In this document: positions 1-13,716 of the stretch, in pieces
How the letters are laid out: the number at the start of each line of letters is the position of its first letter
How positions within the stretch are numbered: position 1 is the stretch's first letter
Virus record (IMG/VR): IMGVR_UViG_2737471853_000004
Span: 1-13,716 of that record
DNA from: a virus
Taxonomy: Duplodnaviria > Heunggongvirae > Uroviricota > Caudoviricetes
Direction: 5' to 3' (one strand)
Length of the DNA: 13,716 nucleotides
Program-made: the position numbers and the translations under genes
The notes under the pieces: generated by a model
The model's database searches: none
Told to the model about the DNA's origin: nothing
The model's input: only the letters and a program-made list of their open reading frames with translations

Positions 1-69
1 AATAAAACCGGCATAGGCCACGCTATTTCATGGCTCTGGTTTTCTCTATTAAGGAGCTTCTGTAATGGC

Positions 70-588
70 TTATTCGATCAGCAATTCAGGCTGCGTTACC
101 TGCATGATGTGCTCATGCTCCACAGCCAGAACACGTTTCTCTTTCTTCCGCTCGTTCATCAACCGGCTGCCGATCGTGCCCTTCAACTTTGACCGCGTTT
201 CTTTGATGGCGTAGCGGTGCTGCATTTCTTCTCCCATCGCCATGCGTCGGCTTAGCTGCTCGGCCATCCAGTTAAAGGCATTGATGTAGCACTCCTTTAC
301 TGCGGCAGCTGTTTTTCCAGTGAACCCCATCACGAGCATCATGCATCCATCGCGTGTGATGTTATACATGGGCTGAACATCGCCATTTTTATCAATGAAA
401 TCAATGGGCGCAAAATTGCGCAGGGTGAAGTCGTCGGAGCATTTCAGGTTACGTATGGCGCGCAAAACGTCTTTGTGTCGCTTGCCAAAGTAGTCAGCCA
501 CCTTGAGTGATGTCGTGATTATCTTGTTGTCGAGGGTCGTGACCATTTCGCGGAAGTCGAAGGCCGGAATAACTGACGGATTATTCAT
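70..588 (-). CDS. rha: Rha-family phage regulatory protein (antirepressor-like)
   Basis: Translation contains TTSLKVADYFGKRHKDVLRAI and LVMGFTGKTAAAVKECYINAFN, which fit the Phage_pRha family as I recall it. Start trimmed to the Met of MNNPSVIPAF (ATG at 586-588); the longer ORF-track extension runs through the upstream terminator hairpin. Confidence 0.6.
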   Translation of the reverse strand: MNNPSVIPAFDFREMVTTLDNKIITTSLKVADYFGKRHKDVLRAIRNLKCSDDFTLRNFAPIDFIDKNGDVQPMYNITRDGCMMLVMGFTGKTAAAVKECYINAFNWMAEQLSRRMAMGEEMQHRYAIKETRSKLKGTIGSRLMNERKKEKRVLAVEHEHIMQVTQPELLIE

Positions 589-730
589 AGCGTCTTTACC
601 TTTTAGAAAGTGAGCCTGTCTCACAGAAAAGCCGCCCGAGAGAGGTCGCCACCTATAACGGCATTTCTCAGGCTCGCTTACTGAAAGGCTCTCGTTAATA
701 TGCGCGTGAGATGCGCTGTGAAATTCAGAT

Positions 731-755
731 ATAAAAAAGCCCCGCATCGCGAGGC
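731..755 (-). terminator. Candidate intrinsic terminator downstream of Rz
   Basis: On the minus strand, GCCUCGC-GAU-GCGGGGC (7 bp stem with one G-U, 3-nt loop) is followed by UUUUUUAUAU. The loop is tight, so confidence is moderate. Confidence 0.4.
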
Positions 756-787
756 TCATTAAATGGACTTTGTGATTTGCAAAAAAA

Positions 788-1225
788 TTATTTCAGGCAT
801 TGCGTCCTGATGTACTCCTGCAGGTAGTTAACCTGCGCGGTTATCCTGTCGATTCCACTTCGGAGACGGTAATAATTGAGTTCAGCATCTGCTGTAAGTC
901 CTGGGCTTTCTCCATCGCCCATGCCGCTGGCTCCGGTCGTTGACTTTGCACAGGTGGCGGCGACTTGCAGGCGCTTACGACCAGCAGAAACATCAGCACG
1001 GAGACTTTCGATAGTCGCGTTAGCATCAGCAAGCTCCTTTGTGTATCTGGCGTCGAGTTCTGCTACATCACGTTGACGCTTCTGCATGTCAGCGATGATG
1101 GATGTGGCTTTATCACGCTGATCTTTGTAGGCGATGGCGTTATCACGGTAATGATTAACAGCCCATGACAGACAGACGATGATGCAGATAACCAGAGCGG
1201 AGATAATCGCGGTGACTCTGCTCAT
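788..1225 (-). CDS. Rz: Rz-type i-spanin
   Basis: N-terminus [31 protein letters not shown] matches lambda Rz as I recall it; the remainder is diverged. Overlaps the R stop and sits directly after the endolysin, as in lambda. Confidence 0.85.
841..1032 (-). CDS. Rz1: Rz1-type o-spanin embedded in Rz in an alternative frame
   Basis: ORF lies wholly inside Rz. It has a lipoprotein-like signal with lipobox VSAC followed by a Pro-rich stretch ([13 protein letters not shown]), the typical architecture of embedded Rz1 genes. Confidence 0.7.
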
Positions 1226-1698
1226 ACCTCAATCTCTCTGACCGTTCCGCCTGCTTCTTTGAATTTTGCAATCAGGCTGTCAGCCTTATGCTCGAACTGA
1301 CCATAACCAGCACCCGGCAGTGAAGCCCAGATATTGCTGCAACGGTCGATTGCCTGACGGATATCACCACGATCAATCATCGGCAAAGCGCCACGCTCCT
1401 TAATCTGCTGCAATGCCACAGCATCCTGGCTTTTCGGAGAGAAGTCTTTCAGGCCAAGCTGCTTACGGTAGGCATCCCACCAACGGGAAAGAAGCTGGTA
1501 GCGTCCGGCGGCTGTTGATTTGAGTTTGGGGTTTAGCGTGACAAGTTTGCGAGGGTGATCGGAGTAATCAGTGAATAGCTCTCCTCCTACAATGACGTCA
1601 TAACCATGATTTCTGGTTTTCTGACGTCCGTTATCAGTTCCCTCTGACCACGCCAGCATATCGAGGAACGCCTTACGTTGATTATTGATTTCCACCAT
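1222..1698 (-). CDS. R: Endolysin R (lambda-type lytic transglycosylase)
   Basis: The 158-aa translation [39 protein letters not shown]... is recognisable as lambda R essentially along its whole length. Confidence 0.9.
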
Positions 1699-2005
1699 CT
1701 TCTACTCCGGCTTTTTTAGCAGCGAAGCGTTTGATAAGCGAACCAATCGAGTCAGTACCGATGTAGCCGATGAACACGCTCGTTATATAAGCGAGATTGC
1801 TACTTAGTCCGGCGAAGTCGAGAAGGTCACGAATGAACCAGGCGATAATGGCGCACATCGTTGCGTCGATTACTGTTTTTGTAAACGCACCGCCATTATA
1901 TCTGCCGCGAAGGTACGCCATTGCAAACGCAAGGATTGCCCCGATGCCTTGTTCCTTTGCCGCGAGAATGGCGGCTAACAGGTCATGTTTTTCTGGCATC
2001 TTCAT
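1682..2005 (-). CDS. S: Holin S (S107/S105 dual-start)
   Basis: 107 aa beginning [20 protein letters not shown] with the dual-start Met-Lys-Met motif. The upstream CCCCTTATTGGGG hairpin (sdi-like) and RBS match the lambda S leader. Confidence 0.9.
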
Positions 2006-2247
2006 GTCTTAGCCCCAATAAGGGGATTTGCTCTATTTAATTAGGAATAAGGTCGATTACTGATAGAACAAATCCAGGCTACTGTGTTTAGTAATCAGAT
2101 TTGTTCGTGACCGATATGCACGGGCAAAACGGCAGGAGGTTGTTAGCGCGACCTCTTGCCACCCGCTTTCACGAAGGTCATGTGTAGAAGTCCGCAGCGT
2201 AACTATCACTGATGAATTCAGGATAGCCAGTGGCTACGGCTCAGTTA

Positions 2248-2323
2248 TGGTGCTGTTTAACGGACTTGAACCGCTACCCATTCGCTTACAAGGCGACCGC
2301 TCTACCATTGGAGCTAAAACAGC
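2248..2323 (-). tRNA. tRNA-like gene, anticodon UGU by hand folding (Thr)
   Basis: The minus strand reads GCTGTTT-TA-GCTC-CAATGGTA-GAGC-G-GTCGC-CTTGTAA-GCGAA-TGGGT-AGCGG-TTCAAGT-CCGTT-AAACAGC-A-CCA. It has a 7-bp acceptor stem, a canonical D arm, a GGTTCAAGTCC T arm and an encoded CCA. The anticodon stem has one mismatch, so the isotype call is tentative. Confidence 0.55.
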
Positions 2324-2328
2324 ATGTT

Positions 2329-2403
2329 TGGCGGGACAGCGTGGACTCGAACCACGATAAGAAGGTTAACAGCCTTCCGTAATCACCTTTATACGACTGA
2401 CCC
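2329..2403 (-). tRNA. tRNA-like gene, anticodon GUU by hand folding (Asn); possibly degenerate
   Basis: The minus strand reads GGGTCAG-TC-GTAT...TTAC-G-GAAGG-CTGTTAA-CCTTC-TTAT-CGTGG-TTCGAGT-CCACG-CTGTCCC-G-CCA. T arm and anticodon arm are perfect and CCA is encoded. The acceptor stem has one T-T mismatch and the D stem is only 3 bp. Confidence 0.5.
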
Positions 2404-2466
2404 AAATAAAAAAAGCCACCGTTGCAACTTAAGAGTCACTAACGGCAGCTTACCTTCTAATTATGG

Positions 2467-2985
2467 CTAAATGGATAATTGCATGTCAAGGCTTTTAACA
2501 GCAACATGCTTAACTTTCTCAACACGTTTACGCATTTTGAAAGCATTTTGCATTGGCTGGTACAAAACAAATAACGATGCTTTCAGGATGTCGTCAATTT
2601 CGTTTCTACAGGTTGCCAGTGAAGGTTTTCTCCATCCCTCGCCACCACGTCCACACATCTTGCGTGGCTTTGCAGTCGCGTGATAGTAGGATGCAATTGC
2701 TCGCTTAGATGAACCATGAGCGTAGTAGCTGAGGAGGATGCCAAAGGCTTTTTTGTCAATGTACATGACGGAATCGACGACCTGAGAAATCAACATTCCA
2801 TCATCATCATTGCACATTGGCCTTGTCATAACTCTTCCCGGCTCTACGCTCTCCATGAACTTCGCTATTACGCTGCTCATGCGCTTTTCCAGACGACCTG
2901 AATAAACCCATGCGCCCCACAGTTCAAGCCAGCCATTCAGCCACTCGTGCTGCTCTTTGGTGAGGTTTAGTTCTCTTATGCCCAC
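2467..2985 (-). CDS. Late-gene antiterminator Q, non-lambda Q family
   Basis: 172 aa at the Q position between the nin region and the lysis cassette. Contains LELWGAWV and [13 protein letters not shown], which resemble the WGAW and Cys/Asp-rich motifs I recall from 933W-type Q proteins. It is not lambda Q. Confidence 0.65.
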
Positions 2986-3647
2986 GCGCCTTCTCCCTGT
3001 ACCTGAATCAATGTGAGGTTTCCGCAGAACACTGCGCCGGTATCGATATACATCTGGTTGGCAAACTTGAGTGGTTTCACTGCTGGCGTATGACCAAAGA
3101 TGAACGTGTCAGCTCCTTTGATTTCTTTCACGATCCCGTCTTGTGAGTTGCTGATTCGTTCGCGGTTCCAGATTACCTGCTGATGATCAACTGGCTTTCC
3201 AAATTCGTATTCGTCACAAGGATAATCGGCGTGGCAGATGACATATTTTTTACCTTCGCTCACCAGTTCGATGATTAACGGAAGTTCATCTGCTTTATGG
3301 GCAAGAGCTTTAGCCAGAATTTCTTTGTCGTAATCGAGATTAAAGAACCAGCCACCGCCATTAAACAGCCAGTGATTGACGTTTCCACGCTCTGATAAGC
3401 CATCAATCATCATTTGCTCATGGTTTCCACGTACAGCTCGGAACCAGGGGAATGTGATTAATTCCAGACATTCGACGTTCTCTGTACCGCGATCGACCAA
3501 ATCGCCAACCGAGATAAGCAGGTCTTTTTTGGTGTCGAATCCCATCGTCTCCAGTTTTTTCATCAGGTTCGTGTAGCATCCGTGCAGATCGCCAACTACC
3601 CAAATATTTCGGTATTTGCTGCCATCAATTTTTTCGTAATAGCGCAT
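2976..3647 (-). CDS. ninI: Ser/Thr protein phosphatase (lambda PP, NinI)
   Basis: [29 protein letters not shown]...GNHE carries the metallophosphatase GDxHG/GDxxDRG/GNHE motifs and is near-identical to lambda PP as I recall it. Start trimmed to MRYYEK (ATG 3645-3647). Confidence 0.9.
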
Positions 3648-3831
3648 CTCTTTCACTCCATCCGCGATGAACCATGAGAACGTCGTTGACGATGGCGTGC
3701 ATTTTCCCGTCTTTATCATCAACGTATTTTCTGACCGTACCGCGACTACATTTCAGTCTGCGTGCTACTTCTGTCTGGTTTCCGTATGCTTCAACGAGCA
3801 TGTCTGGAATGGTTTTTACTGAGAACGTCAT
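3625..3831 (-). CDS. ninH: NinH (small HTH protein)
   Basis: 68 aa [37 protein letters not shown]... matches lambda NinH. Its ATG overlaps the ninG stop as ATGA. Confidence 0.85.
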
Positions 3832-4439
3832 GCGGCCTCACTTCTGCTATTTCGCAGGTCTTTGAGTTTCTGTTGGTACTCTGCCTTGATCGCCTTGCAC
3901 TCTTCGATAGTCCAGCGATGGCGGCTATGGTTTGATTCGATTTCGTCTACTGCTTCCTGCCCTATGCGATTAATCAGTTCGACGCGATACGGAACGAGAT
4001 TTCCGCTTTTATGCTGGTTGCACACCACGCATTGCTTGTGAATATTGCGTTCATCAAATCGGAGTTGAGGTGCCGCAGCAGTTGTCCGGTAATGTCCGGC
4101 ATCCCACTGAGCAGACGTGAGCGTTCCGCACGAGATACATGGTAAGTCGCGGTCTCTTTCTCTGATGAAGGCGTTTACGGCTTGCTGGGCTTGTTTAATC
4201 CAGTAACTGCGGGGCTTTAAGGCGAGTTTTCGAATCTTCAGTTTATCTTTCTGTTTCTGCTCCTCTCGTCGTCGTTTCTTCTCTGCTGCTTTTTCCGCTT
4301 TTTCGCGTTCTTTGCTTCGTCGTTCGAGTGCTATCTTTGTTCCACACTCTGGAGAGCACCACCACTGATTAGCGAATGCAGGGTGAAACCATTCCCGACA
4401 TTCATCGTTTTTACATCGTCTTCGCGCTGGTTTAGCCAT
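3828..4439 (-). CDS. ninG: NinG / Rap recombination endonuclease
   Basis: 203 aa [33 protein letters not shown]... with Cys-rich clusters, matching lambda NinG (Rap). Confidence 0.9.
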
Positions 4440-4608
4440 CGTCTTCTTCCTCGTACATTGAGCTATTCGGATCGCTCATCAGTTCTGCGAAGCAGTGCTC
4501 ACACACGTGAACTTCCAGCACATGCAGCTTCTGACCGCAGTTAGCGCACGTTAAAGCCCGCTCGACGCTTTCTTTCTGGTATTGGAGGGATTGGGATGGG
4601 CTAAGCAT
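4432..4608 (-). CDS. ninF: NinF
   Basis: Not in the ORF track (58 aa). Hand translation of the minus strand gives [58 protein letters not shown], matching lambda NinF. Its stop overlaps the ninG ATG (ATGGCTAA). Confidence 0.8.
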
Positions 4609-4960
4609 TATTGGCGTCCTGCATCATGAGAAAGACAATCATGGCGGCGCGGAGGGAATTTTCATGTATAGCTCGCTTAGATTTACAGTCGGCCACACCA
4701 CGTGCACCCCACTCGTCTTCATCGAGATTGATAATGCTAATCCTGTACTTCTCAATAATCGGCCATGAGGCGCTAGGATCATTGCAGTAGTCAGGTAAAG
4801 GGTTTAATGGCTCAAAAGTTGTATCAGCATTTCCGTAATACCATTTGTTGGTGTTATTCCCTGATGTTTCCGGTTTACATGCCCAAAGGCCTTTAAAAAT
4901 TATGTCTCCTACCATTCTGTTAATTTCAAAATCACTTAACTGTGAATAATCCATTGTCAT
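4601..4960 (-). CDS. Hypothetical protein between ninE and ninF (NinX-like position)
   Basis: ORF occupies the slot where P22-like nin regions carry ninX; lambda has no gene here. Start is ambiguous: the ATG at 4958-4960 overlaps the ninE stop as ATGA, while the ATG at 4952-4954 has GAGGAA about 7 nt upstream. No catalytic motif recognised. Confidence 0.5.
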
Positions 4961-5133
4961 TTCCTCGCACGATGTCTTAGCCACCGGATATCCCACAGGT
5001 GAGCCGTGTAGTTGAAGGTTTTTACGTCAGATTCTTTTGGGATTGGCTTGCGTTTATTTCTGGAGCGTTTCGTTGGAAGGTATTTGCAGTTTTCGCAGAT
5101 GATGTCGGTGATACTTCGTCGCTGTCGTCTCAT
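4957..5133 (-). CDS. ninE: NinE
   Basis: [52 protein letters not shown]... matches lambda NinE. Start trimmed to MRRQRR (ATG 5131-5133), overlapping the methylase stop. Confidence 0.8.
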
Positions 5134-5657
5134 GCCGTCCTCCTGACGCCCTGCCCGATCGCCATCAATGCCGCTTTGGATACGGTAGTAAACATCCGTC
5201 GAGGACTGATGAACGGTCGCCAAATCAGCAGCATTGAGCCTTTGCTGTTTCCCTTCTTCTCCAGCCCCGTCGATGGTTCGATAAAATTAATCCGTCCATC
5301 AGTGATGATGCGAACTTCGTCAACGCTCTCCAGAGCCTTGCTGAACCATCCGACTGACATATCCTCTGGCACAAGCATCACTACCGTCTGTCGCTGTTGT
5401 ATGCACTGCTCAGCGGCTTTTTCTACCCACGGCCTGATATTGCTGTACGGTGGGTTATTCCAGATTGCACCGTGGCTTACCCACTCAGAATTGAGCGCGT
5501 CGTCGGCCTCAGTTAACCAGTGAGCGCACAGAGCATTTTTGTCGCTCGCTGCCGAATCCAGCCAGAATCCAAACTCAATATCCAGTGCATCAAAAAGCCA
5601 AAGCGGCGTTTGCCAGCAGTCCTTGTCGTGTGCTGGCGTATTTGATTTGATAGTCAT
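5130..5657 (-). CDS. Phage DNA N6-adenine methyltransferase (Dam-like, orphan)
   Basis: Contains the NPPY catalytic motif (IWNNPPYS) and a [12 protein letters not shown]-terminal region typical of the phage N6-adenine methylase family. Start trimmed to MTIKSN (ATG 5655-5657), overlapping the ninB stop. It sits where lambda has ninC/ninD. Confidence 0.8.
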
Positions 5658-6094
5658 GCAGCCCGATCTCCCCATCGCGCTTTCCATTCGAGAGCCAGTC
5701 GCGCTTCGTCTGACCACTTAACGCCACGCTCTGTACCGAATGCCTGTATAAGCTCTAATAGCTCCGCAAATTCGCTTACACGCATCCTGCTGGTTGACTG
5801 GCCTATTACCACAAAGCCATTCCCGGCAAGGTTAGGAACAACGTCCTGCTGCTTTAATGCAGCTGTAAAAACGCACTTCCAGCTTTCTGCATCCAGCCAG
5901 CGACCATGCCATTCAACCTGACGAGAGACGTCACCAAGGCAAGCCCAAAGCTTTCGATTCTGGTCTAAGCTGCGGTTGCGTTCCTGAATGGTTACTACGA
6001 TTGGTTTGGTTGGGTCTGGAAGGATTTGCTGTACTGCGTGAATAGCATTTTGCTGAAGTTCTGGAGATCGAATTTCAAAGGTCAGTTTTTTCAT
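5654..6094 (-). CDS. ninB: NinB (Orf recombination mediator)
   Basis: MKKLTFEIRSPELQQNAIHAVQQILPDPTKPIVVTIQERNRSLDQNRKLWACLGDVSRQ... is near-identical to lambda NinB. Start trimmed to MKKLTF (ATG 6092-6094) with GAGGGAAG upstream; the ORF-track extension begins at a TTG. Confidence 0.9.
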   Translation of the reverse strand: MKKLTFEIRSPELQQNAIHAVQQILPDPTKPIVVTIQERNRSLDQNRKLWACLGDVSRQVEWHGRWLDAESWKCVFTAALKQQDVVPNLAGNGFVVIGQSTSRMRVSEFAELLELIQAFGTERGVKWSDEARLALEWKARWGDRAA

Positions 6095-6110
6095 GACTTC
6101 CCTCTCCCCC

Positions 6111-6142
6111 AAATAAAAAGGCCTGCGATTACCAGCAGGCCT
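6111..6142 (-). terminator. Intrinsic terminator between ren and ninB (tR2-like)
   Basis: On the minus strand, AGGCCUGC-ugguaauc-GCAGGCCU (perfect 8-bp GC-rich stem, 8-nt loop) is followed by UUUUAUUU. The position matches lambda tR2. Confidence 0.6.
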
Positions 6143-6167
6143 GTTATTAGCTCAGTGATGTAGATAG

Positions 6168-6458
6168 TCATTGCCTTACCTCCATAAGCGCCCTATTAAT
6201 AAACGCCGTCATTGGATTTGCACATCCCCACCCCGTACCATCTTGATTTCTTTTAATTGGCTCCTTCTTCACTTTGCGTTTTGCATAAATAACCGTCTTC
6301 CACTTACGCTCAACAACACTCAAATGTCCTTGTTTCACCATATGCCTTGCTGCTTGAGCGATTCTGTTATTTGGTATTCCGGTGATCAGTGCTAATTCAT
6401 GTGGGGAGAATTGTTCATGAGTTTTCAGATATTCCAGGATGATTTCTTTTCCAGTCAC
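6168..6458 (-). CDS. ren: Ren-like protein
   Basis: 96 aa starting MTGKEIILEYLKTHEQFSPHELALITG, similar in its N-terminus, length and position to lambda Ren. The start codon appears to be GTG (6456-6458) with AGGAG 6 nt upstream, overlapping the DnaC-like stop. Confidence 0.65.
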   Translation of the reverse strand: MTGKEIILEYLKTHEQFSPHELALITGIPNNRIAQAARHMVKQGHLSVVERKWKTVIYAKRKVKKEPIKRNQDGTGWGCANPMTAFINRALMEVRQ

Positions 6459-7300
6459 GATCTGCTCCTGTAACTATCCCATGTAAACGCAAGAGTGCAC
6501 CCGCCGCCATCATTCATCCTGTCAATAACACGCTCACCAATGAATGCAGACAGTTCATCTTTGCTCTGGTTGCTAATCAGGATTGTTGGCTTCATGCGCT
6601 CGTAGCGGGTGTTGATGATTTCGAACATGATCATCTTTTCCGCCTCGCTTCCAAACTGCACACCAACCTCATCGATAATTAGCAGGTCAGGTTTAGTGAA
6701 CTGTCGGATCACTTCATCCTCTGTGCGGGTGGAGTTTTTCGACCATGTTGATTTATATTCTCTGGCAATTTTCAGCGCCGTTGTGAAAATAGCTGAGCTT
6801 TGATGTTCCGTAATTGCGTGCCGGGCGATAGCCAGTGCAAGATGATTCTTTCCAGTACCAGGCTTTCCACACATAACCAGCCCACCGCCTTTCTGTAACC
6901 TCTCAGGCCATTTGCTGGCGTATGCCTGACACACCCTGAGCACTCTCTTTGCATCGTCGTTGACTGGCTCGTAGTTCTGTAGTGTGCAACCCTTGAATCG
7001 TTCAGGAATATCAAGATTATTCAACAGAAACTCGACATTGCGCTTACGTGATTCCTCGTCGATTTTAATCTTCTCTGCCTGTAGCCGAATAAGCTCATCT
7101 CTCATGCATTCCGGGCATTCGCTAGGTCTTGAGGCAAACTTAATTGGCCCAGTCGAGTAACGGTTACGCTGCTCAAACTCACCATGTTTTTCACAGATGC
7201 CAGTGCCAATTTCTACAGATGTATGCTCGATAGCAATTGGCGGAGAACTCAATTCTGCAAGTTTTTTCTCCAGTTGGGAGATCTTTTCATCCAGCGTCAT
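6455..7300 (-). CDS. DnaC-like replicative helicase loader (AAA+ ATPase)
   Basis: Walker A GKPGTGKNHLA, Walker B LLIIDEVG, and an N-terminal Cys-rich region. Start trimmed to MTLDEK (ATG 7298-7300) with AGGAG 5 nt upstream. It occupies the lambda P position. Confidence 0.85.
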   Translation of the reverse strand: MTLDEKISQLEKKLAELSSPPIAIEHTSVEIGTGICEKHGEFEQRNRYSTGPIKFASRPSECPECMRDELIRLQAEKIKIDEESRKRNVEFLLNNLDIPERFKGCTLQNYEPVNDDAKRVLRVCQAYASKWPERLQKGGGLVMCGKPGTGKNHLALAIARHAITEHQSSAIFTTALKIAREYKSTWSKNSTRTEDEVIRQFTKPDLLIIDEVGVQFGSEAEKMIMFEIINTRYERMKPTILISNQSKDELSAFIGERVIDRMNDGGGCTLAFTWDSYRSRS

Positions 7301-7302
7301 GT

Positions 7303-8145
7303 TCACTCCTGCGCCCATGAAGGCATTTCAGTTTGTCCGTAATCTTTGGTGGCAAAGTTTTCCTGCATAGCTCGATGCTGCGGCCTCGGTTGAGATTTCC
7401 CCTTTGGAGTCTTGGGCTCAAAAATCCCCTGCCAACCACTGGCGATGCTCTGGTTTATAATTTCTTCAGGTGTATATCCCTTCTCCAGACTTCTGCTTAG
7501 AACGTTGATAGCCTGAGTGACGCTTTGCTTAGACTTGATCGACTTACCTATCTCCTTACGATAGGTAACCCACGACAACCATGTTTCTGCTGATAACCAA
7601 TCAGGCAACTCTGTTTCTAGCGGGTCGAACTTCTGAGAAACTTTTTTGGGGGATATAGGGGGTTTATTAATATTTTCTTTTGTCTTTAAAGAATGTCTTT
7701 TGTGTGTCTCTAACTTCGAGACATTGAGTGTCTCTAATTTGGAGACATTTTTTGTCTCTAACTTCGAGACAAAGTTGCTAACTTGGAGACACTTGCTGAA
7801 TTGCCACGCAGATACCTCCCTGTTTACACCGATTTGATTTCCATCCATAAACAGGCAATTCATTGAAATCAGTTCTTTTTTAGCCTTGTTAACATTCTGC
7901 CTTGATAGTCCTGTTAACTGAGCAATTTGCTCATCGGCTATTCGATCTGTTTTCTTATTGAATCCATATGTTTTCCGGACGTAGGCCAGCATAACTTTCA
8001 ACTGGCGAGCGGTTAAATCGGCACTTGCGATAGCTTCCAGCAGCTCGTTAGCGAATCTGGTGTAACCATCATCGATATCAGCCACTCTTCGCTCCTGTTC
8101 AACAGGTTCACTCTTCGGCAGGTAAAATACTTCAGCCAGGCTCAT
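7303..8145 (-). CDS. O: Replication initiator O-like protein (origin-binding N-domain, non-lambda C-domain)
   Basis: The N-terminal region DDGYTRFANELLEAIASADLTARQLKVMLAYVRKTYGFNKKTDRI parallels the lambda O N-domain. The central VSKLET repeats are encoded by the iterons. Start chosen at MSLAEV (ATG 8143-8145) with GGAGG 6 nt upstream. Confidence 0.8.
   Translation of the reverse strand: MSLAEVFYLPKSEPVEQERRVADIDDGYTRFANELLEAIASADLTARQLKVMLAYVRKTYGFNKKTDRIADEQIAQLTGLSRQNVNKAKKELISMNCLFMDGNQIGVNREVSAWQFSKCLQVSNFVSKLETKNVSKLETLNVSKLETHKRHSLKTKENINKPPISPKKVSQKFDPLETELPDWLSAETWLSWVTYRKEIGKSIKSKQSVTQAINVLSRSLEKGYTPEEIINQSIASGWQGIFEPKTPKGKSQPRPQHRAMQENFATKDYGQTEMPSWAQE
7705..7791. repeat. Replication-origin iterons, four about 19-bp inverted-symmetry repeats at 24-bp spacing
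   Basis: TGTCTCTAACTTCGAGACA at 7705-7723, TGTCTCTAATTTGGAGACA at 7729-7747, TGTCTCTAACTTCGAGACA at 7753-7771, and TTGCTAACTTGGAGACA at 7775-7791. An AT-rich tract at 7640-7700 flanks them on the side downstream in the O reading direction, the same arrangement as lambda ori inside O. Confidence 0.75.
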
Positions 8146-8776
8146 TTCCAACCTCCGCATCAAAGCATTGGGCTTCAAGAGACTTAACCATCACCACACT
8201 GCCATCTGTATTAATAACTATCGATGAGTTATATTTGCTTATCAGTTGCTTCGCGTAATCAATTCCGGCGCGAATAAGGAAATTTTTCACCGCAGGAAGA
8301 TGACCAACTACACTACCCAGACCTTGCTCTATAAGCTCCTCATTAAGATCAAGCTCATTTTCATGGCGAAAAGAAATGAATGAGTCGTAAATTGCGTATT
8401 CTGCCGTCTCGCCATTTCTTTCAGGGCCAACCAGCGCCCTTATTTCATTTAGAGATTCATAAAGATCATTATCTTCAAGCTTGAAAAACTCTCGATTATC
8501 ACTAAGCCTCTCTTTTGCAAAGGCTTTATGAATAAGTTTTTCATCTGATGCGGGATTATTTGAATGAAAGGCTGCTATCACCTTAAATGGCTTAGGAACG
8601 CCAGTAGAGGCTGAAATTTCTTTAGCCCTAACTTCTGGTGAATGCTTAGTCATCCCAATCTTATAAATTCCCGGCATGCACTCATTCGAAAGCACATAAA
8701 CAAAGCCATTTGATTTAAAATCATCTGGCACCTTCATGCTCTTCAGAACCTGGAATTTGTCATTTTCGTATGTCAT
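8132..8776 (-). CDS. T5orf172 / GIY-YIG-like domain protein, function unknown
   Basis: GFVYVLSNECMPGIYKIGMTKHSPEVRAKEI...KLIHKAFAKERLSDNREFFK fits the T5orf172 motif pattern as I recall it. AGGAG lies 5 nt upstream of the ATG. It is inserted between cII and O, where lambda has no gene, and its last 14 nt overlap the O start. Confidence 0.5.
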   Translation of the reverse strand: MTYENDKFQVLKSMKVPDDFKSNGFVYVLSNECMPGIYKIGMTKHSPEVRAKEISASTGVPKPFKVIAAFHSNNPASDEKLIHKAFAKERLSDNREFFKLEDNDLYESLNEIRALVGPERNGETAEYAIYDSFISFRHENELDLNEELIEQGLGSVVGHLPAVKNFLIRAGIDYAKQLISKYNSSIVINTDGSVVMVKSLEAQCFDAEVGNEPG

Positions 8777-8810
8777 AATTACTCCTGTGGATTGATCCAG
8801 TCTTTCTACA

Positions 8811-9089
8811 TCAGGCCTCGAAGAATTCGCCGTTCTTCGGGGCTTTTTCTTTTGTCAGCATTCTGGCTACTTTCTTAGCCAGTTCAGCCAACTCCTCGTC
8901 TTCAACACCCCATTCAAGAACAGCCAGAAGCATGGCCATCTTTGGGATAAAGCTGTCTTTCCATCGCGAAATTTGCGATTCATTGATCCCTAATGCATCA
9001 GCAACCTTTCGCTGACCACGTACAGCAATTCGATTCAGGATGTTGCTTGTAATTGCATTCGCTTTCTTGCGAGTACTTGTAAGTTGCAT
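8811..9089 (-). CDS. cII: CII-like transcriptional activator
   Basis: MQLTSTRKKANAITSNILNRIAVRGQRKVADALGINESQISRWKDSFIPKMAMLLAVLEWGV parallels lambda CII (SQISRWK and MLLAVLEWGV conserved), though the protein is diverged. The upstream leader TTGTTATCTAAGGAAATACTTACATATG is the lambda cII leader. Start trimmed to this ATG (9087-9089). Confidence 0.8.
   Translation of the reverse strand: MQLTSTRKKANAITSNILNRIAVRGQRKVADALGINESQISRWKDSFIPKMAMLLAVLEWGVEDEELAELAKKVARMLTKEKAPKNGEFFEA
8814..8853 (+). terminator. Intrinsic terminator antisense to the cII 3' end (oop-like)
   Basis: Plus strand CCUCGAAGAA-uucgccg-UUCUUCGGGG (10-bp stem with one G-U, 7-nt loop) followed by CUUUUUCUUUU. It lies antisense to the cII 3' end, as the oop terminator does in lambda. 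Confidence 0.6.
9043..9056 (+). promoter_or_regulatory. Candidate CII-binding site TTGC-N6-TTGC (PRE-like)
   Basis: TTGCTTGTAATTGC on the plus strand, inside the cII N-terminal coding region and oriented toward cro and cI. The tetrad repeat is perfect, but the -10 is not clear and the spacing to the cII ATG differs from lambda. Confidence 0.4.
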
Positions 9090-9168
9090 ATGTAAGTATT
9101 TCCTTAGATAACAATTGATTGAATGTATGCAAATAAATGCATACACCATAGGTGTGGTTTAATTTGAT

Positions 9169-9200
9169 GCCCTTTTTCAGGGCTGGGATGTGTAAGAGCG
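9169..9200 (-). promoter_or_regulatory. nutR (boxA and boxB)
   Basis: The minus strand reads CGCTCTTACACAT (boxA, 9188-9200) and GCCCTGAAAAAGGGC (boxB, 9169-9183), between cro and cII. Confidence 0.8.
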
Positions 9201-9207
9201 GGGTTAT

Positions 9208-9417
<210 letters not shown>

Positions 9418-9432
9418 TTAGTACATGCAACT

Positions 9433-9502
9433 ATTATCACCGCTAGAGGTAAAATAGTCAACACGCACGGTGTTAGATATTTATCCCTTGCGGTGATAGA
9501 TT
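9433..9502. promoter_or_regulatory. Right operator OR1-OR2-OR3 with divergent promoters PR and PRM
   Basis: OR1 at 9435-9451 (TATCACCGCTAGAGGTA), OR2 at 9459-9475 (CAACACGCACGGTGTTA), OR3 at 9482-9498 (TATCCCTTGCGGTGATA). PR -35 TTGACT and -10 GATAAT are on the minus strand; PRM -10 TAGATT is at 9497-9502 ahead of the cI ATG at 9509. Confidence 0.9.
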
Positions 9503-9505
9503 TAA

Positions 9506-10222
<717 letters not shown>

Positions 10223-10253
10223 TTGTTTTATTTTTCACGTAATAGGATGATTT

Positions 10254-11015
10254 ATGACACAGTTTCAACTTGCATTAATCGCTAGAGAAGTTGATGGAGA
10301 AGTCATCCATCTTCGCACCAAAGACGGATACATCAATGCCACCGCGATGTGCAAGTCTGCGGGGAAGCTACTTGCTGACTATACACGACTAAAAACAACA
10401 CAAGATTTTTTTGATGAATTATCACGCGATATGGGGATTCCCATATCGGAGTTAATTCAATCATTTAAAGGCGGAAGAGCAGAGAATCAAGGGACTTGGG
10501 TTCATCCAGACATCGCAATTAATTTAGCTCAGTGGCTATCTCCAAAATTTGCAGTGCAAGTATCGAGATGGGTGCGTGAGTGGATGTCAGGTGAAAGAGC
10601 GCCTGCCGAACTCCCTATCCACCTTAAGCGGTATATGACAAACCGAGGCAGAGTTCCTCATACGCACTTTTCTATGCTTAATGAACTGACGTTTAACTTG
10701 GTTGCGCCACTTGAACAGGCCGGATATACGCTGCCAGAAAAAATGGTCCCTGATATTTCAGAGGGTAGGGTTTTCTCGCAATGGCTCCGTGACAACCGGG
10801 GGGTTGAGCCGAAGACATTCCCAACATATAACCATGAGTACCCAGATGGCCGGACATTCCCGGTACGTCTATACCCAAACGAATATCTTGCAGATTTCAA
10901 ACAACACTTCAACGAAGTGTGGCTGCCTCAGTACGCTCCTAAATATTTTGCTGAACGAGACCAAAGGGCATTGACGTTGATTGAGAAAATCATGCTACCT
11001 GACCTTGATTCCTAA
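10254..11015 (+). CDS. KilA-N domain protein in the rexAB position (candidate BstA-like abortive-infection protein)
   Basis: The N-terminal roughly 110 aa (GEVIHLRTKDGYINATAMCKSAGK...GTWVHPDIAINLAQWLSPKFAVQVSRWV) fit the KilA-N fold pattern; the C-terminal roughly 140 aa are unassigned. The gene starts 31 nt after the cI stop on the same strand and is followed by a terminator. Confidence 0.6.
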   Translation: MTQFQLALIAREVDGEVIHLRTKDGYINATAMCKSAGKLLADYTRLKTTQDFFDELSRDMGIPISELIQSFKGGRAENQGTWVHPDIAINLAQWLSPKFAVQVSRWVREWMSGERAPAELPIHLKRYMTNRGRVPHTHFSMLNELTFNLVAPLEQAGYTLPEKMVPDISEGRVFSQWLRDNRGVEPKTFPTYNHEYPDGRTFPVRLYPNEYLADFKQHFNEVWLPQYAPKYFAERDQRALTLIEKIMLPDLDS

Positions 11016-11021
11016 ATGTTA

Positions 11022-11046
11022 TTCCCGGCCAAGAGCCGGGTTTTCT
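11022..11046 (+). terminator. Intrinsic terminator ending the cI / KilA-N transcription unit
   Basis: CCCGGC-caaga-GCCGGG (6-bp GC stem, 5-nt loop) followed by TTTTCTTT, 7 nt after the stop codon. Confidence 0.6.
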
Positions 11047-11204
11047 TTGCCTCACGATCCCCCTCACCCAAGAACACATAACCAATTGTATTTATTTGAA
11101 AATTAATAGATACAACTCACTAAACATCGCAATTCAGATCTCTCGATCACCTTCCCAATCCACACAACCCTGCAAAGAATAAATCTATATAAAAACATAC
11201 AGAT

Positions 11205-11267
11205 AACCATCTGCGGTGATAAATTATCTCTGGCGGTGTTGACATAAATACCACTGGCGGTGATACT
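11205..11267 (+). promoter_or_regulatory. Left operator OL3-OL2-OL1 with promoter PL
   Basis: OL3 AACCATCTGCGGTGATA at 11205-11221, OL2 TATCTCTGGCGGTGTTG at 11225-11241, OL1 TACCACTGGCGGTGATA at 11249-11265. PL -35 TTGACA at 11239-11244 and -10 GATACT at 11262-11267, reading toward N. Confidence 0.9.
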
Positions 11268-11307
11268 AAGCACATCAGCAGGATGCACTGACCACCATTG
11301 AAGGTGA

Positions 11308-11338
11308 GGCTCTTAAAAATTTAGCCCTGAAGAAGGGC
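11308..11338 (+). promoter_or_regulatory. nutL (boxA-like and boxB)
   Basis: boxB GCCCTGAAGAAGGGC at 11324-11338 is preceded by GGCTCTTAAAAA (boxA-like, with a first-base difference from the CGCTCTTA consensus). Confidence 0.8.
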
Positions 11339-11448
11339 AGCATTCAAAGCAGAAAGCTTTGAGTAGCGCGAAATGCAGCTGCAAGACAGCAACCGTGGAG
11401 ATAAGCATCACGGCGCGTTACTCAAAGCTAACTGACAGGAGAATCCAG

Positions 11449-11775
11449 ATGGATGCACAAACACGCCGCCGCGAACGTCGCGCAGAGAAACAGGCTCAAT
11501 GGAAAGCAGCAAATCCCCTGTTGGTTGGGGTAAGCGCAAAACCAGTTAACCGCCCTATTCTCTCGCCGAATCGCAAACCGAAATCACGAGTAGAAAGCGC
11601 ACTGAATCCGATAGACCTTACGGTGCTGGCTGAATACCACGAACAGATTGAAAGCAACCTGCAACGTATTGAGCGCAAGAATCAGCGCACATGGTACAGC
11701 AAGCCACGCAGTGAAATGGGTGTGACTTGTGTTGGTCGCCAGAAAATGAAATTAGGCAGCAAACCACTTATTTGA
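11449..11775 (+). CDS. N: Antiterminator N
   Basis: MDAQTRRRERRAEKQAQWKAANPLLVGVSAKPVNRPIL..., with the arginine-rich boxB-binding motif; lambda N-like but diverged toward the C-terminus. Start trimmed to the ATG at 11449 with a GGAG RBS. Confidence 0.9.
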   Translation: MDAQTRRRERRAEKQAQWKAANPLLVGVSAKPVNRPILSPNRKPKSRVESALNPIDLTVLAEYHEQIESNLQRIERKNQRTWYSKPRSEMGVTCVGRQKMKLGSKPLI

Positions 11776-11785
11776 GGACTGATAC

Positions 11786-12028
11786 ATGAGAGTAAAAACT
11801 ATGGGCGCAAGCCCATTAAGTGGTCGTATTTTTCAAGGAACATTAAACACTGAAAAAGGAATGTGGGTGGGAAAGAAAGAAGATGTAACCGAACAGGCAG
11901 TTAAGGCAGTAGCTGAACACATGATGATAAAAGACCAGAAATATGCATACGAAACGAAGGATGGCAAATGGCTGATAATAAGTCATCAAATAGTTGATAA
12001 ATTACCAGAAGAGTTTATTGCTGATTAA
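11786..12028 (+). CDS. Hypothetical 80-aa protein immediately downstream of N
   Basis: GAGGA lies 7 nt upstream of the ATG, 11 nt after the N stop. No family recognised. It occupies the region where lambda carries ral and sieB. Confidence 0.5.
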   Translation: MRVKTMGASPLSGRIFQGTLNTEKGMWVGKKEDVTEQAVKAVAEHMMIKDQKYAYETKDGKWLIISHQIVDKLPEEFIAD

Positions 12029-12156
12029 AATTATTTTGGCATAAACAACAGAATAAACACTGCACTGTGTATTCATTCCAACGAGTGAATACACGGAGCA
12101 ATGTCGCTCGTAACTAAACAGGAGCCGACTTGTTCTGATTATTGGAAATCTTCTTT

Positions 12157-12183
12157 GCCCTCCAGTGTGAGGGCGATTTTTTA
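12157..12183 (+). terminator. Intrinsic terminator (tL2-like) upstream of ea10
   Basis: GCCCTC-cagtgt-GAGGGC (6-bp stem) followed by GATTTTTTAT. Confidence 0.55.
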
Positions 12184-12202
12184 TCTATGAGGATATGAAT
12201 AG

Positions 12203-12571
12203 ATGTCAAACATCAAAAAATACATCATTGATTACGACTGGAAAGCATCAATAGAAATTGAAATCGACCATGACGTAATGACAGAGGAAAAACTTCACCA
12301 GATTAATAATTTCTGGTCAGACTCTGAATACCGACTCAATAAACACGGCTCTGTATTAAATGCTGTATTAATCATGCTGGCGCAACATGCTCTGCTTATA
12401 GCAATTTCAAGCGACTTAAATGCATATGGTGTTGTGTGTGAGTTCGACTGGAATGATGGAAATGGTCAGGAAGGATGGCCTCCAATGGATGGTAGCGAAG
12501 GAATAAGAATTACCGATATCGATACATCAGGAATATTTGATTCAGATGATATGACTATCAAAGCCGCCTGA
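12203..12571 (+). CDS. ea10: Ea10-like protein
   Basis: 122 aa MSNIKKYIIDYDWKASIEIEIDHDVMTEEKLHQINNFW... with an acidic C-terminus. I recall it as lambda Ea10, and the position upstream of cIII agrees. Confidence 0.7.
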   Translation: MSNIKKYIIDYDWKASIEIEIDHDVMTEEKLHQINNFWSDSEYRLNKHGSVLNAVLIMLAQHALLIAISSDLNAYGVVCEFDWNDGNGQEGWPPMDGSEGIRITDIDTSGIFDSDDMTIKAA

Positions 12572-12594
12572 GCGCAGCGTTACCGCATACCAAT

Positions 12595-12620
12595 AACGCT
12601 TCACTCGAGGCGTTTTTCGT
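12595..12620 (+). terminator. Candidate hairpin plus U-tract between ea10 and cIII
   Basis: AACGCUUC-acuc-GAGGCGUU (8-bp stem with one G-U) followed by UUUCGUUAU. The U-tract is interrupted, so this may be an attenuator or RNA-processing structure rather than a full terminator. Confidence 0.35.
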
Positions 12621-12643
12621 TATGTATAAATAAGGAGCACACC

Positions 12644-12808
12644 ATGCAATATGCCATTGCAGGGTGGCCTGTTGCTGGCTGCCCTTCCGAATCTTTACTT
12701 GAACGAATCACCCGTAAATTACGTGACGGATGGAAACGCCTTATCGACATACTTAATCAGCCAGGAGTCCCAAAAAATGGATCAAACACTTATGGCTATC
12801 CAGACTAA
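12644..12808 (+). CDS. cIII: CIII (FtsH inhibitor)
   Basis: Not listed separately in the ORF track. Hand translation from the ATG at 12644 (AAGGAG RBS) gives [54 protein letters not shown], which is lambda CIII. Confidence 0.85.
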   Translation: MQYAIAGWPVAGCPSESLLERITRKLRDGWKRLIDILNQPGVPKNGSNTYGYPD

Positions 12809-12920
12809 ATTCACTATCGCCACTTTTATTGGCGATGAAAAGATGTTTCGTGAGGCCGTCGACGCTTATAAAAAATGGATATTAATACTGAAACTGAGAT
12901 CAAGCAAAAGCATTCACTAA
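12777..12920 (+). CDS. kil: Kil (host-killing, FtsZ inhibitor)
   Basis: [47 protein letters not shown] (47 aa) matches lambda Kil. It overlaps the cIII 3' end in another frame, as in lambda. Confidence 0.8.
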
Positions 12921-13027
12921 TCCCCTTTCCTGTTTTCCTAATCAGCCTGGCATTTCGCGGGCGATATTTTCACAGCCATTTTCAGGAGTTCAGCCATGAA
13001 CGCTTATTACATTCAGGATCGTCTTGA
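12875..13027 (+). other. Short ORF encoding a Gam-long N-terminal-like peptide, out of frame with gam
   Basis: Hand translation gives [50 protein letters not shown]. Its first roughly 35 aa resemble the N-terminal extension of lambda GamL, but the frame diverges just before the Gam ATG. Confidence 0.35.
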
Positions 13028-13292
13028 GGCTCAGAGCTGGGCGCGTCACTACCAGCAGATCGCCCGTGAAGAGAAAGAGGCAGAACTGGCAGACGACCTG
13101 GAAAAGGGTCTGCCCCAGCATTTGTTTGAATCGCTATGCATCGATCATTTGCAACGCCACGGGGTCAGCAAAAAAGCCATTACCCGTGCGTTCGATGACG
13201 ATGTTGAGTTTCAGGAGCGCATGGCAGAACACATCCGGTACATGGTTGAAACCATTGCTCACCACCAGGTTGATATTGATTCAGAGGTATAA
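12996..13292 (+). CDS. gam: Gam (RecBCD inhibitor), short GamS form
   Basis: 98 aa [56 protein letters not shown]... matches lambda GamS. GGAG RBS upstream. Confidence 0.9.
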
Positions 13293-13297
13293 AACGG

Positions 13298-13716
13298 ATG
13301 AGTACAGCACTCGCAACGCTGGCTGGGAAGCTGGCTGAACGTGTCGGCATGGATTCTGTCGACCCACAGGAACTGATCACCACTCTTCGCCAGACGGCAT
13401 TTAAAGGTGATGCCAGCGATGCGCAGTTCATCGCATTGTTGATCGTCGCCAACCAGTACGGCCTTAATCCGTGGACGAAAGAAATTTACGCCTTCCCTGA
13501 TAAGCAGAACGGCATCGTTCCGGTGGTGGGCGTTGATGGCTGGTCCCGCATCATCAATGAAAACCAGCAGTTTGATGGCATGGACTTTGAGCAGGACAAT
13601 GAATCCTGCACATGCCGGATTTACCGCAAGGACCGTAATCATCCGATCTGCGTTACCGAGTGGATGGATGAATGCCGCCGCGAACCATTCAAAACCCGCG
13701 AAGGCAGAGAAATCAC
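13298..13716 (+). CDS. bet: Bet (Red-beta single-strand annealing protein), 3'-truncated by window end
   Basis: Hand translation from the ATG at 13298 gives MSTALATLAGKLAERVGMDSVDPQELITTLRQTAFKGDASDAQFIALLIVANQYGLNPWTKEIYAFPDKQNG..., which is lambda Bet. The ORF runs off the end of the window. Confidence 0.9.
   Translation, partial: MSTALATLAGKLAERVGMDSVDPQELITTLRQTAFKGDASDAQFIALLIVANQYGLNPWTKEIYAFPDKQNGIVPVVGVDGWSRIINENQQFDGMDFEQDNESCTCRIYRKDRNHPICVTEWMDECRREPFKTREGREI

Follow-up and report, generated by a model that had tools for sequence, protein, structure and literature searches.

A short KilA-N and BstA_C gene in the rexAB slot of a lambdoid prophage: a candidate defence cassette of the BstA family with an embedded palindrome

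The immunity region

The DNA analysed here, referred to as the window, is the 13,716-nucleotide (nt) stretch comprising positions 1 to 13,716 of the IMG/VR virus record IMGVR_UViG_2737471853_000004 (Caudoviricetes). It represents a lambdoid prophage of mosaic make-up whose immunity is that of lambda and, directly 3' of its cI repressor gene, contains a single open reading frame (ORF; 10254–11015, plus strand) for a protein of 253 amino acids. The protein is a short-form member of the BstA family composed of a KilA-N domain and a BstA_C domain, and a 22-bp palindrome is embedded in its gene.

The cI gene (9509–10222, plus strand) shows 98% nucleotide identity to the lambda cI region and encodes the Pfam domains HTH_3 and Peptidase_S24. 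The ORF starts 31 nt past the cI stop on the same strand, with an AGGA ribosome-binding site at 10244–10247, six bases 5' of its ATG. It is preceded by a leader (10196–10253, plus strand) that is conserved with the gene and comprises the last ~27 nt of a cI-type ORF (ending ..SQWPEETFG-stop) and a 30–31-nt spacer with the AGGA. Downstream is a rho-independent terminator (11024–11048, plus strand), a G+C-rich hairpin followed by a T-run, which is the lambda t_imm element found 3' of rexB. The right boundary of the slot is formed by the PL promoter with the OL operators (11239–11267, plus strand; promoter scan, 90% identity to lambda PL/OL), and the promoter scan places PR at its lambda position (9461–9433, minus strand).

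The alignment with lambda runs at 98% identity from cII through cI and ends at the base following the cI stop (window position 10223). It is picked up again, with 90% identity, at position 11024, one base beyond the position of the rexB stop. The 1401 bp of lambda that comprise the cI-rexA spacer, rexA and rexB are thus exchanged to the base for 800 bp. Between 10224 and 11023 there is no homology to lambda, RexA and RexB included, and KilA-N is the only Pfam match. The alignment confirms the initial annotation, made from the sequence alone, which had placed a single 253-residue gene in the rexAB slot, 31 nt after cI and followed by a terminator.

A promoter of the ORF's own was looked for between cI and the ORF, and the promoter scan detected no sigma-70-like site there, which leaves room for a weak or non-canonical one. 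Since PR and PL are also in their lambda positions, the simplest and most likely reading is that PRM/PRE transcripts of the lysogen cover both cI and the ORF.

RexAB is an abortive-infection-type defence expressed from the lambda lysogen and consists of a sensor and a membrane ion channel. The ORF occupies the same cI-to-t_imm slot on the same strand, presumably with the same PRM/PRE read-through. Unlike RexA and RexB, to which it shows no sequence or domain similarity, it encodes one protein, predicted to be soluble and of a DNA-binding type.

Protein domains and relation to BstA

BstA is a single-protein abortive-infection system (Owen et al. 2021, Cell Host Microbe, PMC8585504). BstA-BTP1 from the Salmonella prophage BTP1, BstA-Ec and BstA-Kp make the host resistant to many phages, among them lambda, phi80, P1 and T7; the tested proteins, which are 41–48% identical to BTP1 BstA, give comparable resistance, while the abortive mechanism was characterised for BTP1 BstA (PMC8585504). 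The protein goes to replicating phage DNA and stops its replication, and what spares the carrier prophage is aba, an element of DNA in the bstA locus (PMC8585504). In BTP1, aba is 63 bp long, lies across the start codon and needs its terminal CCCGCC direct repeats; it works as DNA, only at high copy number, and its specificity differs from one BstA to another (PMC8585504). The five E. coli homologues considered in that work are 849–918 bp long, none being of 762 bp, and the same list contains a 747-bp entry from Yersinia rohdei (PMC8585504), which may be a short form judging by length alone.

Residues 13–112 of the 253-residue protein (10290–10589, plus strand) form a KilA-N (APSES-fold) DNA-binding domain (Pfam PF04383, E = 8.2e-27, above the gathering threshold). 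They share fold and sequence family with the KilA-N/APSES domains of P1 KilA, Mbp1 and Bqt4, and differ from these in being fused to BstA_C. The initial annotation had recognised KilA-N in this half correctly. It had found no match for the C-terminal half among known domains; profile matches and conserved positions identify residues ~120–247 (10611–10994, plus strand) as a BstA_C domain (PF26567). The PADLOC model of BstA matches residues 120–237 with E = 2.5e-20, and PHROG 6287, described as “BstA abortive infection system, replication inhibitor”, matches the protein end to end with E = 1.8e-82. The profile searches suggested at the outset have therefore returned KilA-N for the N-terminal half and BstA for the C-terminal half. 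Precomputed annotations give both PF04383 and PF26567, the latter named “BstA_C”, in all 120 close homologues among those listed, and PF26567 alone, with no Pfam KilA-N, in BstA-BTP1 and all 120 of its homologues among those listed. The ORF is under strong purifying selection.

The two forms are distant in sequence. BLASTP against BstA-BTP1, in which the C-terminal BstA domain spans residues ~156–307, aligns only residues 133–251 with 29% identity (E = 5e-15), and identity to the BstA-Ec type is 22%, in the C-domain only. In a profile–profile comparison (hhalign), the short-form and long-form families match end to end with 97.8% probability and their C-domains with 98.3% probability (E = 2.5e-14). 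Homology of the N-terminal halves was tried in the same way and was not significant (E = 0.075), with alignments so shallow (Neff about 2.3) that distant homology of the N-domains may have been missed. Fifteen invariant or near-invariant positions carry the same residue in the short and long BstA_C families, namely R126, N130, P135, F139, S140, E144, D167, S169, G171, W177, H194, Y207, P208, F215 and Y231.

As far as sequence can tell, the 253-residue protein is securely placed as a short architectural variant of the BstA family by its BstA_C domain, its architecture and its slot. It shares with BstA the conserved residues of BstA_C, a two-domain layout with a KilA-N-class DNA-binding N-domain, and the position of a single gene directly 3' of a prophage repressor and followed by a terminator. 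It differs in its length (253 residues versus about 300–307) and in its N-domain, a canonical Pfam KilA-N in place of the BstA N-region, which does not align with it at the profile level. It also differs in that the BTP1 locus has a 63-bp aba with terminal direct repeats at the start codon, while here a selected palindrome lies about 175 nt into the gene. The initial annotation was thus right both in linking the gene to BstA, a link that runs through the C-domain, and in suspecting a distinct family or fusion.

The family is already labelled as BstA in PHROGs. The gene is new in its architecture, while the kind of defence system it represents is known. What the variant shows is that the BstA_C domain also occurs joined to a canonical KilA-N and that this short form is widespread. 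The present analysis further shows that the rexAB slot has three alternative occupants and that the cassette is mobile, and it identifies the palindrome within the gene, whose arms covary.

Distribution and mobility of the cassette

An identical gene is located 3' of cI in Escherichia phage PhiR5_2, where it is annotated as a hypothetical protein. Relatives are present in 139 of 5426 complete E. coli genomes, with 15 copies identical and 22 at least 95% identical, and IMG/VR contains 403 related stretches. Copies with at least 96% nucleotide identity are found behind unrelated repressors in E. coli strains H6, DY612 and 81. A repressor with an S24 peptidase domain lies directly 5' of the gene or its relatives in 46 of 79 IMG/VR viral loci, and S24 repressors make up 14 of the 20 representative upstream ORFs scanned; at least 14 different repressors of this type precede a gene of at least 92% identity. 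A homologue in a Proteus phage is also 3' of cI.

The shared cassette is made of the relic of a cI-type 3' end, the 30-nt leader, the ORF and the terminator hairpin. Behind unrelated repressors the ~27-nt relic (window 10196–10222) stays as non-coding DNA (loci L012, L013 and L016–L049), and the cI of BTP1 ends in the same ..SQWPEETFG-stop motif. The leader is not conserved in the 78–93% variants. Prophages of many immunity types have acquired the gene as a cassette behind their repressor, those with lambda immunity at the position of rexAB, and the relic and the terminator hairpin look like conserved linkers for the exchange of morons.

A long-form gene of the BstA-Ec type fills the identical cI-to-t_imm slot in a lambda-immunity prophage of E. 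coli O178:H19 2012C-4431 (L096, reverse strand, 1336–2241). Its product is 42.5% identical to BstA-BTP1, equals in length that of the tested NCTC10963 gene and is included in Table S1 of Owen et al. The flanks of this gene are 98.5% identical to the window up to the cI stop, and identity resumes at window position 11035 with 88% and continues through N. The slot is therefore occupied alternately by rexAB, by long-form BstA or by the short form.

Other members are placed differently. Of the 117 E. coli genomes in the band of 60–80% nucleotide identity, most contain a variant of 257 residues with 87% amino acid identity (WP_000200358). In the loci examined it is not 3' of a repressor but beside hokD in Rac-like prophages, between hokD and a DUF551 gene and in the orientation opposite to the replication genes (L003, L015 and L098; 12608–13381 in vB_EcoS-673R7). 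Some distant members are located beside an MmeI-type restriction-modification gene in an integrase island or near an Abi_C gene, resembling defence islands, and others stand alone in chromosomes. Three distant homologues (L100, 4001–4774; L101, 4001–4762; L102, 4001–4792) lie directly 3' of P4-type primase (Zn_Ribbon_Prim/Toprim_3/DUF927) or Prim-Pol/AAA_25 genes, with genes for P63C-domain proteins also adjoining. This neighbourhood suggests that such homologues are carried by satellite-like or other self-replicating elements.

Two divergent copies, that of strain H6 (L012, 2840–2842; 97.5% identical) and that of strain 81 (L014; 99.0%), share a change of GAA to TAA at codon 114. The stop, equivalent to window position 10593, falls in the inter-domain linker and leaves separate KilA-N and BstA_C ORFs; the strain 81 copy contains frameshifts as well. 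The shared stop is either a parallel inactivation or a recombined allele.

The palindrome in the KilA-N coding region

The palindrome CGATATGGGgATTCCCATATCG (10427–10448, with no strand of its own) is 22 bp long, has 9-bp arms with one central asymmetry, and extends from the third base of codon 58 through codon 65 (R-DMGIPIS). It is single-copy in the window, as it is in the 37.8-kb phage 673R7. In a sliding-window comparison with eight relatives, synonymous divergence is saturated at 0.8–1.0 over most of the gene and drops to 0.21–0.57 at codons 51–80 in every one of the eight comparisons. Among 18 diverse genes, the major-codon fraction reaches 0.94–1.00 at codons 59 and 61–64 (GAT, GGA, ATT, CCC, ATA) against a gene-wide mean of 0.52, and I68 (0.86) is the only other three-, four- or six-fold degenerate codon to reach 0.85. 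The centre GGAATTCC is nearly invariant at synonymous sites (GGA and ATT in 17 of 18 genes each), including the positions of a would-be hairpin loop.

Relatives contain perfect palindromes at the same codons in six symmetric arm variants, the amino acids changing along with the arms. These are V1, CGATATGGGAATTCCCATATCG (22 bp; L003, L047, L048, L057, L065 and L088); V2, CCGATGCGGGAATTCCCGCATCGG (24 bp; L083); V3, GGTCCATGGGAATTCCCATGGACC (24 bp; L085 and L094); V4, CCGATGTCGGAATTCCGACATCGG (24 bp; L099); V5, CCGTTACGGGAATTCCCGTAACGG (24 bp; L100); and V6, CGAAACGGGAATTCCCGTTTCG (22 bp; L101). Further loci have shorter palindromes of 12–16 bp, and a sister clade with the motif QTGLPEQ has varied codons and no palindrome. 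The long-form BstA genes examined contain nothing comparable.

Since the palindrome overlaps codons, the first two bases of codons 64 and 65 should be the complements of the second and first bases of codons 60 and 59, respectively. In proteins with the G-I-P motif this rule is obeyed by 63 of 75 pairs at (60,64), with the residue pairs M-I/M, T-V, V-T, A-A and I-I, and by 66 of 75 pairs at (59,65), with D/E-S, V-T, S-D and A-A. Shuffling gave on average 29.0 and 34.5 such pairs, and neither observed count was reached in 5000 shuffles; the shuffles ignore relatedness, and at least four different types of double change occur at each pair. The control pairs (58,66) and (57,67) are at their shuffle means. 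The 44 proteins that lack G-I-P show no excess at (60,64) and a weak one at (59,65), with 6 of 44 pairs against a mean of 2.6, a count reached in 35 of 5000 shuffles. The palindrome is real and is selected at the DNA or RNA level. In the literature searched, neither its sequence in a phage context nor any conserved palindrome at a fixed position in KilA-N coding sequences was found described.

Selection on this site could be unrelated to the encoded protein, if the palindrome acted as an RNA or single-stranded DNA hairpin (an RNase III site, an element of mRNA stability or a translational pause) or as a recombination hotspot. The sequence does fold stably on either strand (dG of −15 to −20 kcal/mol, z about −3.8 to −4.5), the changes in its arms are compensatory, as in structured RNAs, and a few G-T pairs are tolerated. 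The near-invariance of GGAATTCC at synonymous sites, loop positions included, speaks against such a role, as do the recurrence of the identical 20–22-mer in unrelated coding and non-coding flanks and the absence of a match to the palindrome, or to any part of the cassette, among the RNA families of Rfam. A decision between RNA and DNA was also attempted from the types of mismatch, which are too few to decide. A function as a hairpin or hotspot is considered somewhat unlikely.

Since the centre is invariant even at loop positions and the identical 20–22-mer stands in unrelated flanks, sequence-specific recognition, most simply by a dimer of KilA-N, is favoured over a generic hairpin. The 20–24-bp element, with its core GGAATTCC and its lineage-specific symmetric arms, may be bound by a dimeric KilA-N domain as its cognate double-stranded DNA and may serve as an aba-like self marker in the KilA-N + BstA_C proteins, with copies outside these genes acting as immunity-only decoys. 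This proposal is tentative and is held to be rather improbable as a whole.

Copies of the palindrome outside BstA_C genes

The element is not confined to genes with BstA_C. Among 150 diverse representatives, 54 of 128 KilA-N domain instances from proteins that lack BstA_C have the G-I-P motif, and the codon rule is obeyed by 43 and 42 of these 54 at the two pairs, with the new residue pairs L-R, R-R, S-E and N/K-L. The arm variants V2, V3, V5 and V6 occur both outside and within KilA-N ORFs, including those on contigs labelled as giant-virus metagenome-assembled genomes (MAGs). On three such IMG/VR contigs (GVMAG; L240, L247 and L254), V2 and V6 are found inside long KilA-N proteins of 456–628 residues, so that the element reaches beyond bacteriophages. 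Two KilA-N-only cyanophage genes contain degenerate versions.

The exact 20-mer GATATGGGAATTCCCATATC is present in more than 120 IMG/VR stretches, which is a lower bound. In the 120 stretches examined, 31 copies are within ORFs for KilA-N proteins, of which 16 have BstA_C and 15 have other C-termini, and 89 are non-coding, at least 52 of the latter in one conserved context about 50 nt 5' of hok/sok. Non-coding, or orphan, copies of the perfect palindrome CGATATGGGAATTCCCATATCG are located in the nin regions of lambdoid prophages, for example at 5371–5390 in L190 and at ~2582–2601 in L228. One orphan (L131) is in a terminator-like setting with an AT-rich extension and a T-run, a context that would suit a hairpin. 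DNA homologous to the hok-adjacent stretch is present in 3061 of the 5426 E. coli genomes, 667 of which cover at least 80% of it; these counts refer to the flanking DNA and not to the palindrome.

Beside hok/sok the orphan copy fills the slot of the Rac-type KilA-N/BstA_C gene and shares only about 36 nt with it. An origin of the hok-adjacent orphan as a deletion relic of that gene was considered and, with so short a shared stretch, is neither supported nor excluded. Gene and orphan can be found together: E. coli ML35 contains a gene identical to that of the window and an orphan copy in another prophage, and on one contig a window-type gene and an orphan copy are 5.6 kb apart.

Like the BTP1 aba, the palindrome is a short DNA element located at its own gene; it is single-copy per phage and has arms that differ between homologues, in parallel with the cognate specificity of aba. 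It is unlike aba in its size and position, 20–24 bp inside the KilA-N coding region as opposed to 63 bp with CCCGCC direct repeats over the start codon, and in not being tied to BstA_C genes, since other KilA-N genes and orphan sites have it as well. A BTP1-like aba was also sought at the start codon of the window gene by way of direct and inverted repeats and conservation of the leader, and nothing above chance was found. Matches of 8-mers with one mismatch around the start codon are few and at chance level, and the leader, as described above, varies.

The occurrence in KilA-N genes with other C-termini means that the palindrome may instead, or also, be an autoregulatory operator. The whole gene could then encode a KilA-N DNA-binding regulator, an autoregulated transcription factor or an antirepressor-like protein acting on other prophages, with no role in abortive infection. 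Annotations as regulators or antirepressors are common among KilA-N proteins, the protein also matches phrog_129, and the promoter-proximal non-coding copies 5' of hok/sok would fit an operator. Such a regulator would nevertheless not account for the BstA_C half with the conserved residues of the family kept, nor for the gene's placement in a moron slot expressed in the lysogen, like rexAB and the BstA-Ec-type homologue. Moreover, an antirepressor co-transcribed with cI would harm its own prophage. A purely regulatory role is judged unlikely.

Proposed function

With a probability of about two in three, the ORF forms by itself a prophage-borne defence cassette of the BstA family, built of KilA-N, a short linker and BstA_C and housed in the cI-to-t_imm slot. 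That it would act by abortive infection is a strong inference by analogy, from homology and position. In the proposed sequence of events, the protein would be idle in the lysogen until a heterologous phage begins lytic DNA replication. The KilA-N domain would then engage the replicating DNA of the invader, and BstA_C would stop phage replication, with the loss of the infected cell.

On induction, the carrier prophage would have to escape its own protein, and the best candidate for this is the palindrome at 10427–10448 and not an aba at the start codon. As the carrier replicates, the amplified palindrome could titrate or silence the defence protein, while orphan copies, such as those near hok/sok, could let co-resident or competing prophages escape, ML35 being a possible example. 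Aba-like self-immunity with orphan decoys would fit the published logic of BstA.

Several points weigh against this picture. The PADLOC match covers only positions 149–271 of the 292 of the BstA model (42% of its length), a search of NCBIfam with the 253-residue protein gave no match, and the N-terminal halves of the short and long forms do not match significantly. No direct repeats of at least 5–6 nt were found across the ATG at spacings of 30–100 nt. A strict equation of the palindrome with aba is weakened by its occurrence in genes for proteins without BstA_C. The gene is dispensable, as some copies are inactivated by the stop at codon 114. In the searchable literature no published test of any short KilA-N + BstA_C member was found; follow-up literature on the BstA mechanism, on PF26567 and on phage PhiR5_2 likewise yielded nothing relevant.

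The gene might also provide defence or exclusion in another manner, sparing the cell or interfering with a stage different from DNA replication, if the mechanism had diverged along with the N-domain. The lack of detectable relationship between this domain and that of BstA would be in line with such a change, as would the low identity of the C-domain to its BTP1 and BstA-Ec counterparts. The slot, moreover, also houses mechanistically unrelated systems such as RexAB. Yet the conserved core of BstA_C is retained, and the tested BstA proteins confer comparable resistance at 41–48% identity to BTP1 BstA (PMC8585504). A divergent mechanism of this kind appears quite improbable, and abortive infection of the BstA type is the preferred reading.

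The palindrome and its natural symmetric arm variants open a way to study how KilA-N recognises DNA and how self is told from non-self in the family, and the palindrome may also explain the conserved orphan site beside hok/sok in E. coli prophages. If it is indeed the cognate ligand, BstA-type systems would have a readable specificity code in the codons of the defence gene itself.

Other features of the window

The insert that separates cII from the O-type replication gene is a 214-residue ORF of the T5orf172/MUG113 type (GIY-YIG-like; 8132–8776, minus strand). It matches the PADLOC candidate system PDC-S57 with E = 4.5e-29 and the C-terminal region of PD-Lambda-1 with E = 1.4e-11, and may be a second defence moron in the immunity and replication region. 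The nin region encodes an orphan Dam-type N6-adenine methyltransferase (5130–5717, minus strand; Pfam Dam, E = 9e-65), which PADLOC lists as an orphan methyltransferase. The Rfam family Lambda_thermo, the cIII thermoregulator, is found at 12631–12689 (plus strand) with 88.5 bits, confirming that the cIII leader of the PL operon is of the lambda type. Two tRNA genes, tRNA-Thr(TGT) at 2248–2323 and tRNA-Asn(GTT) at 2329–2403 (both minus strand), are located between the Q-like region and the lysis genes.

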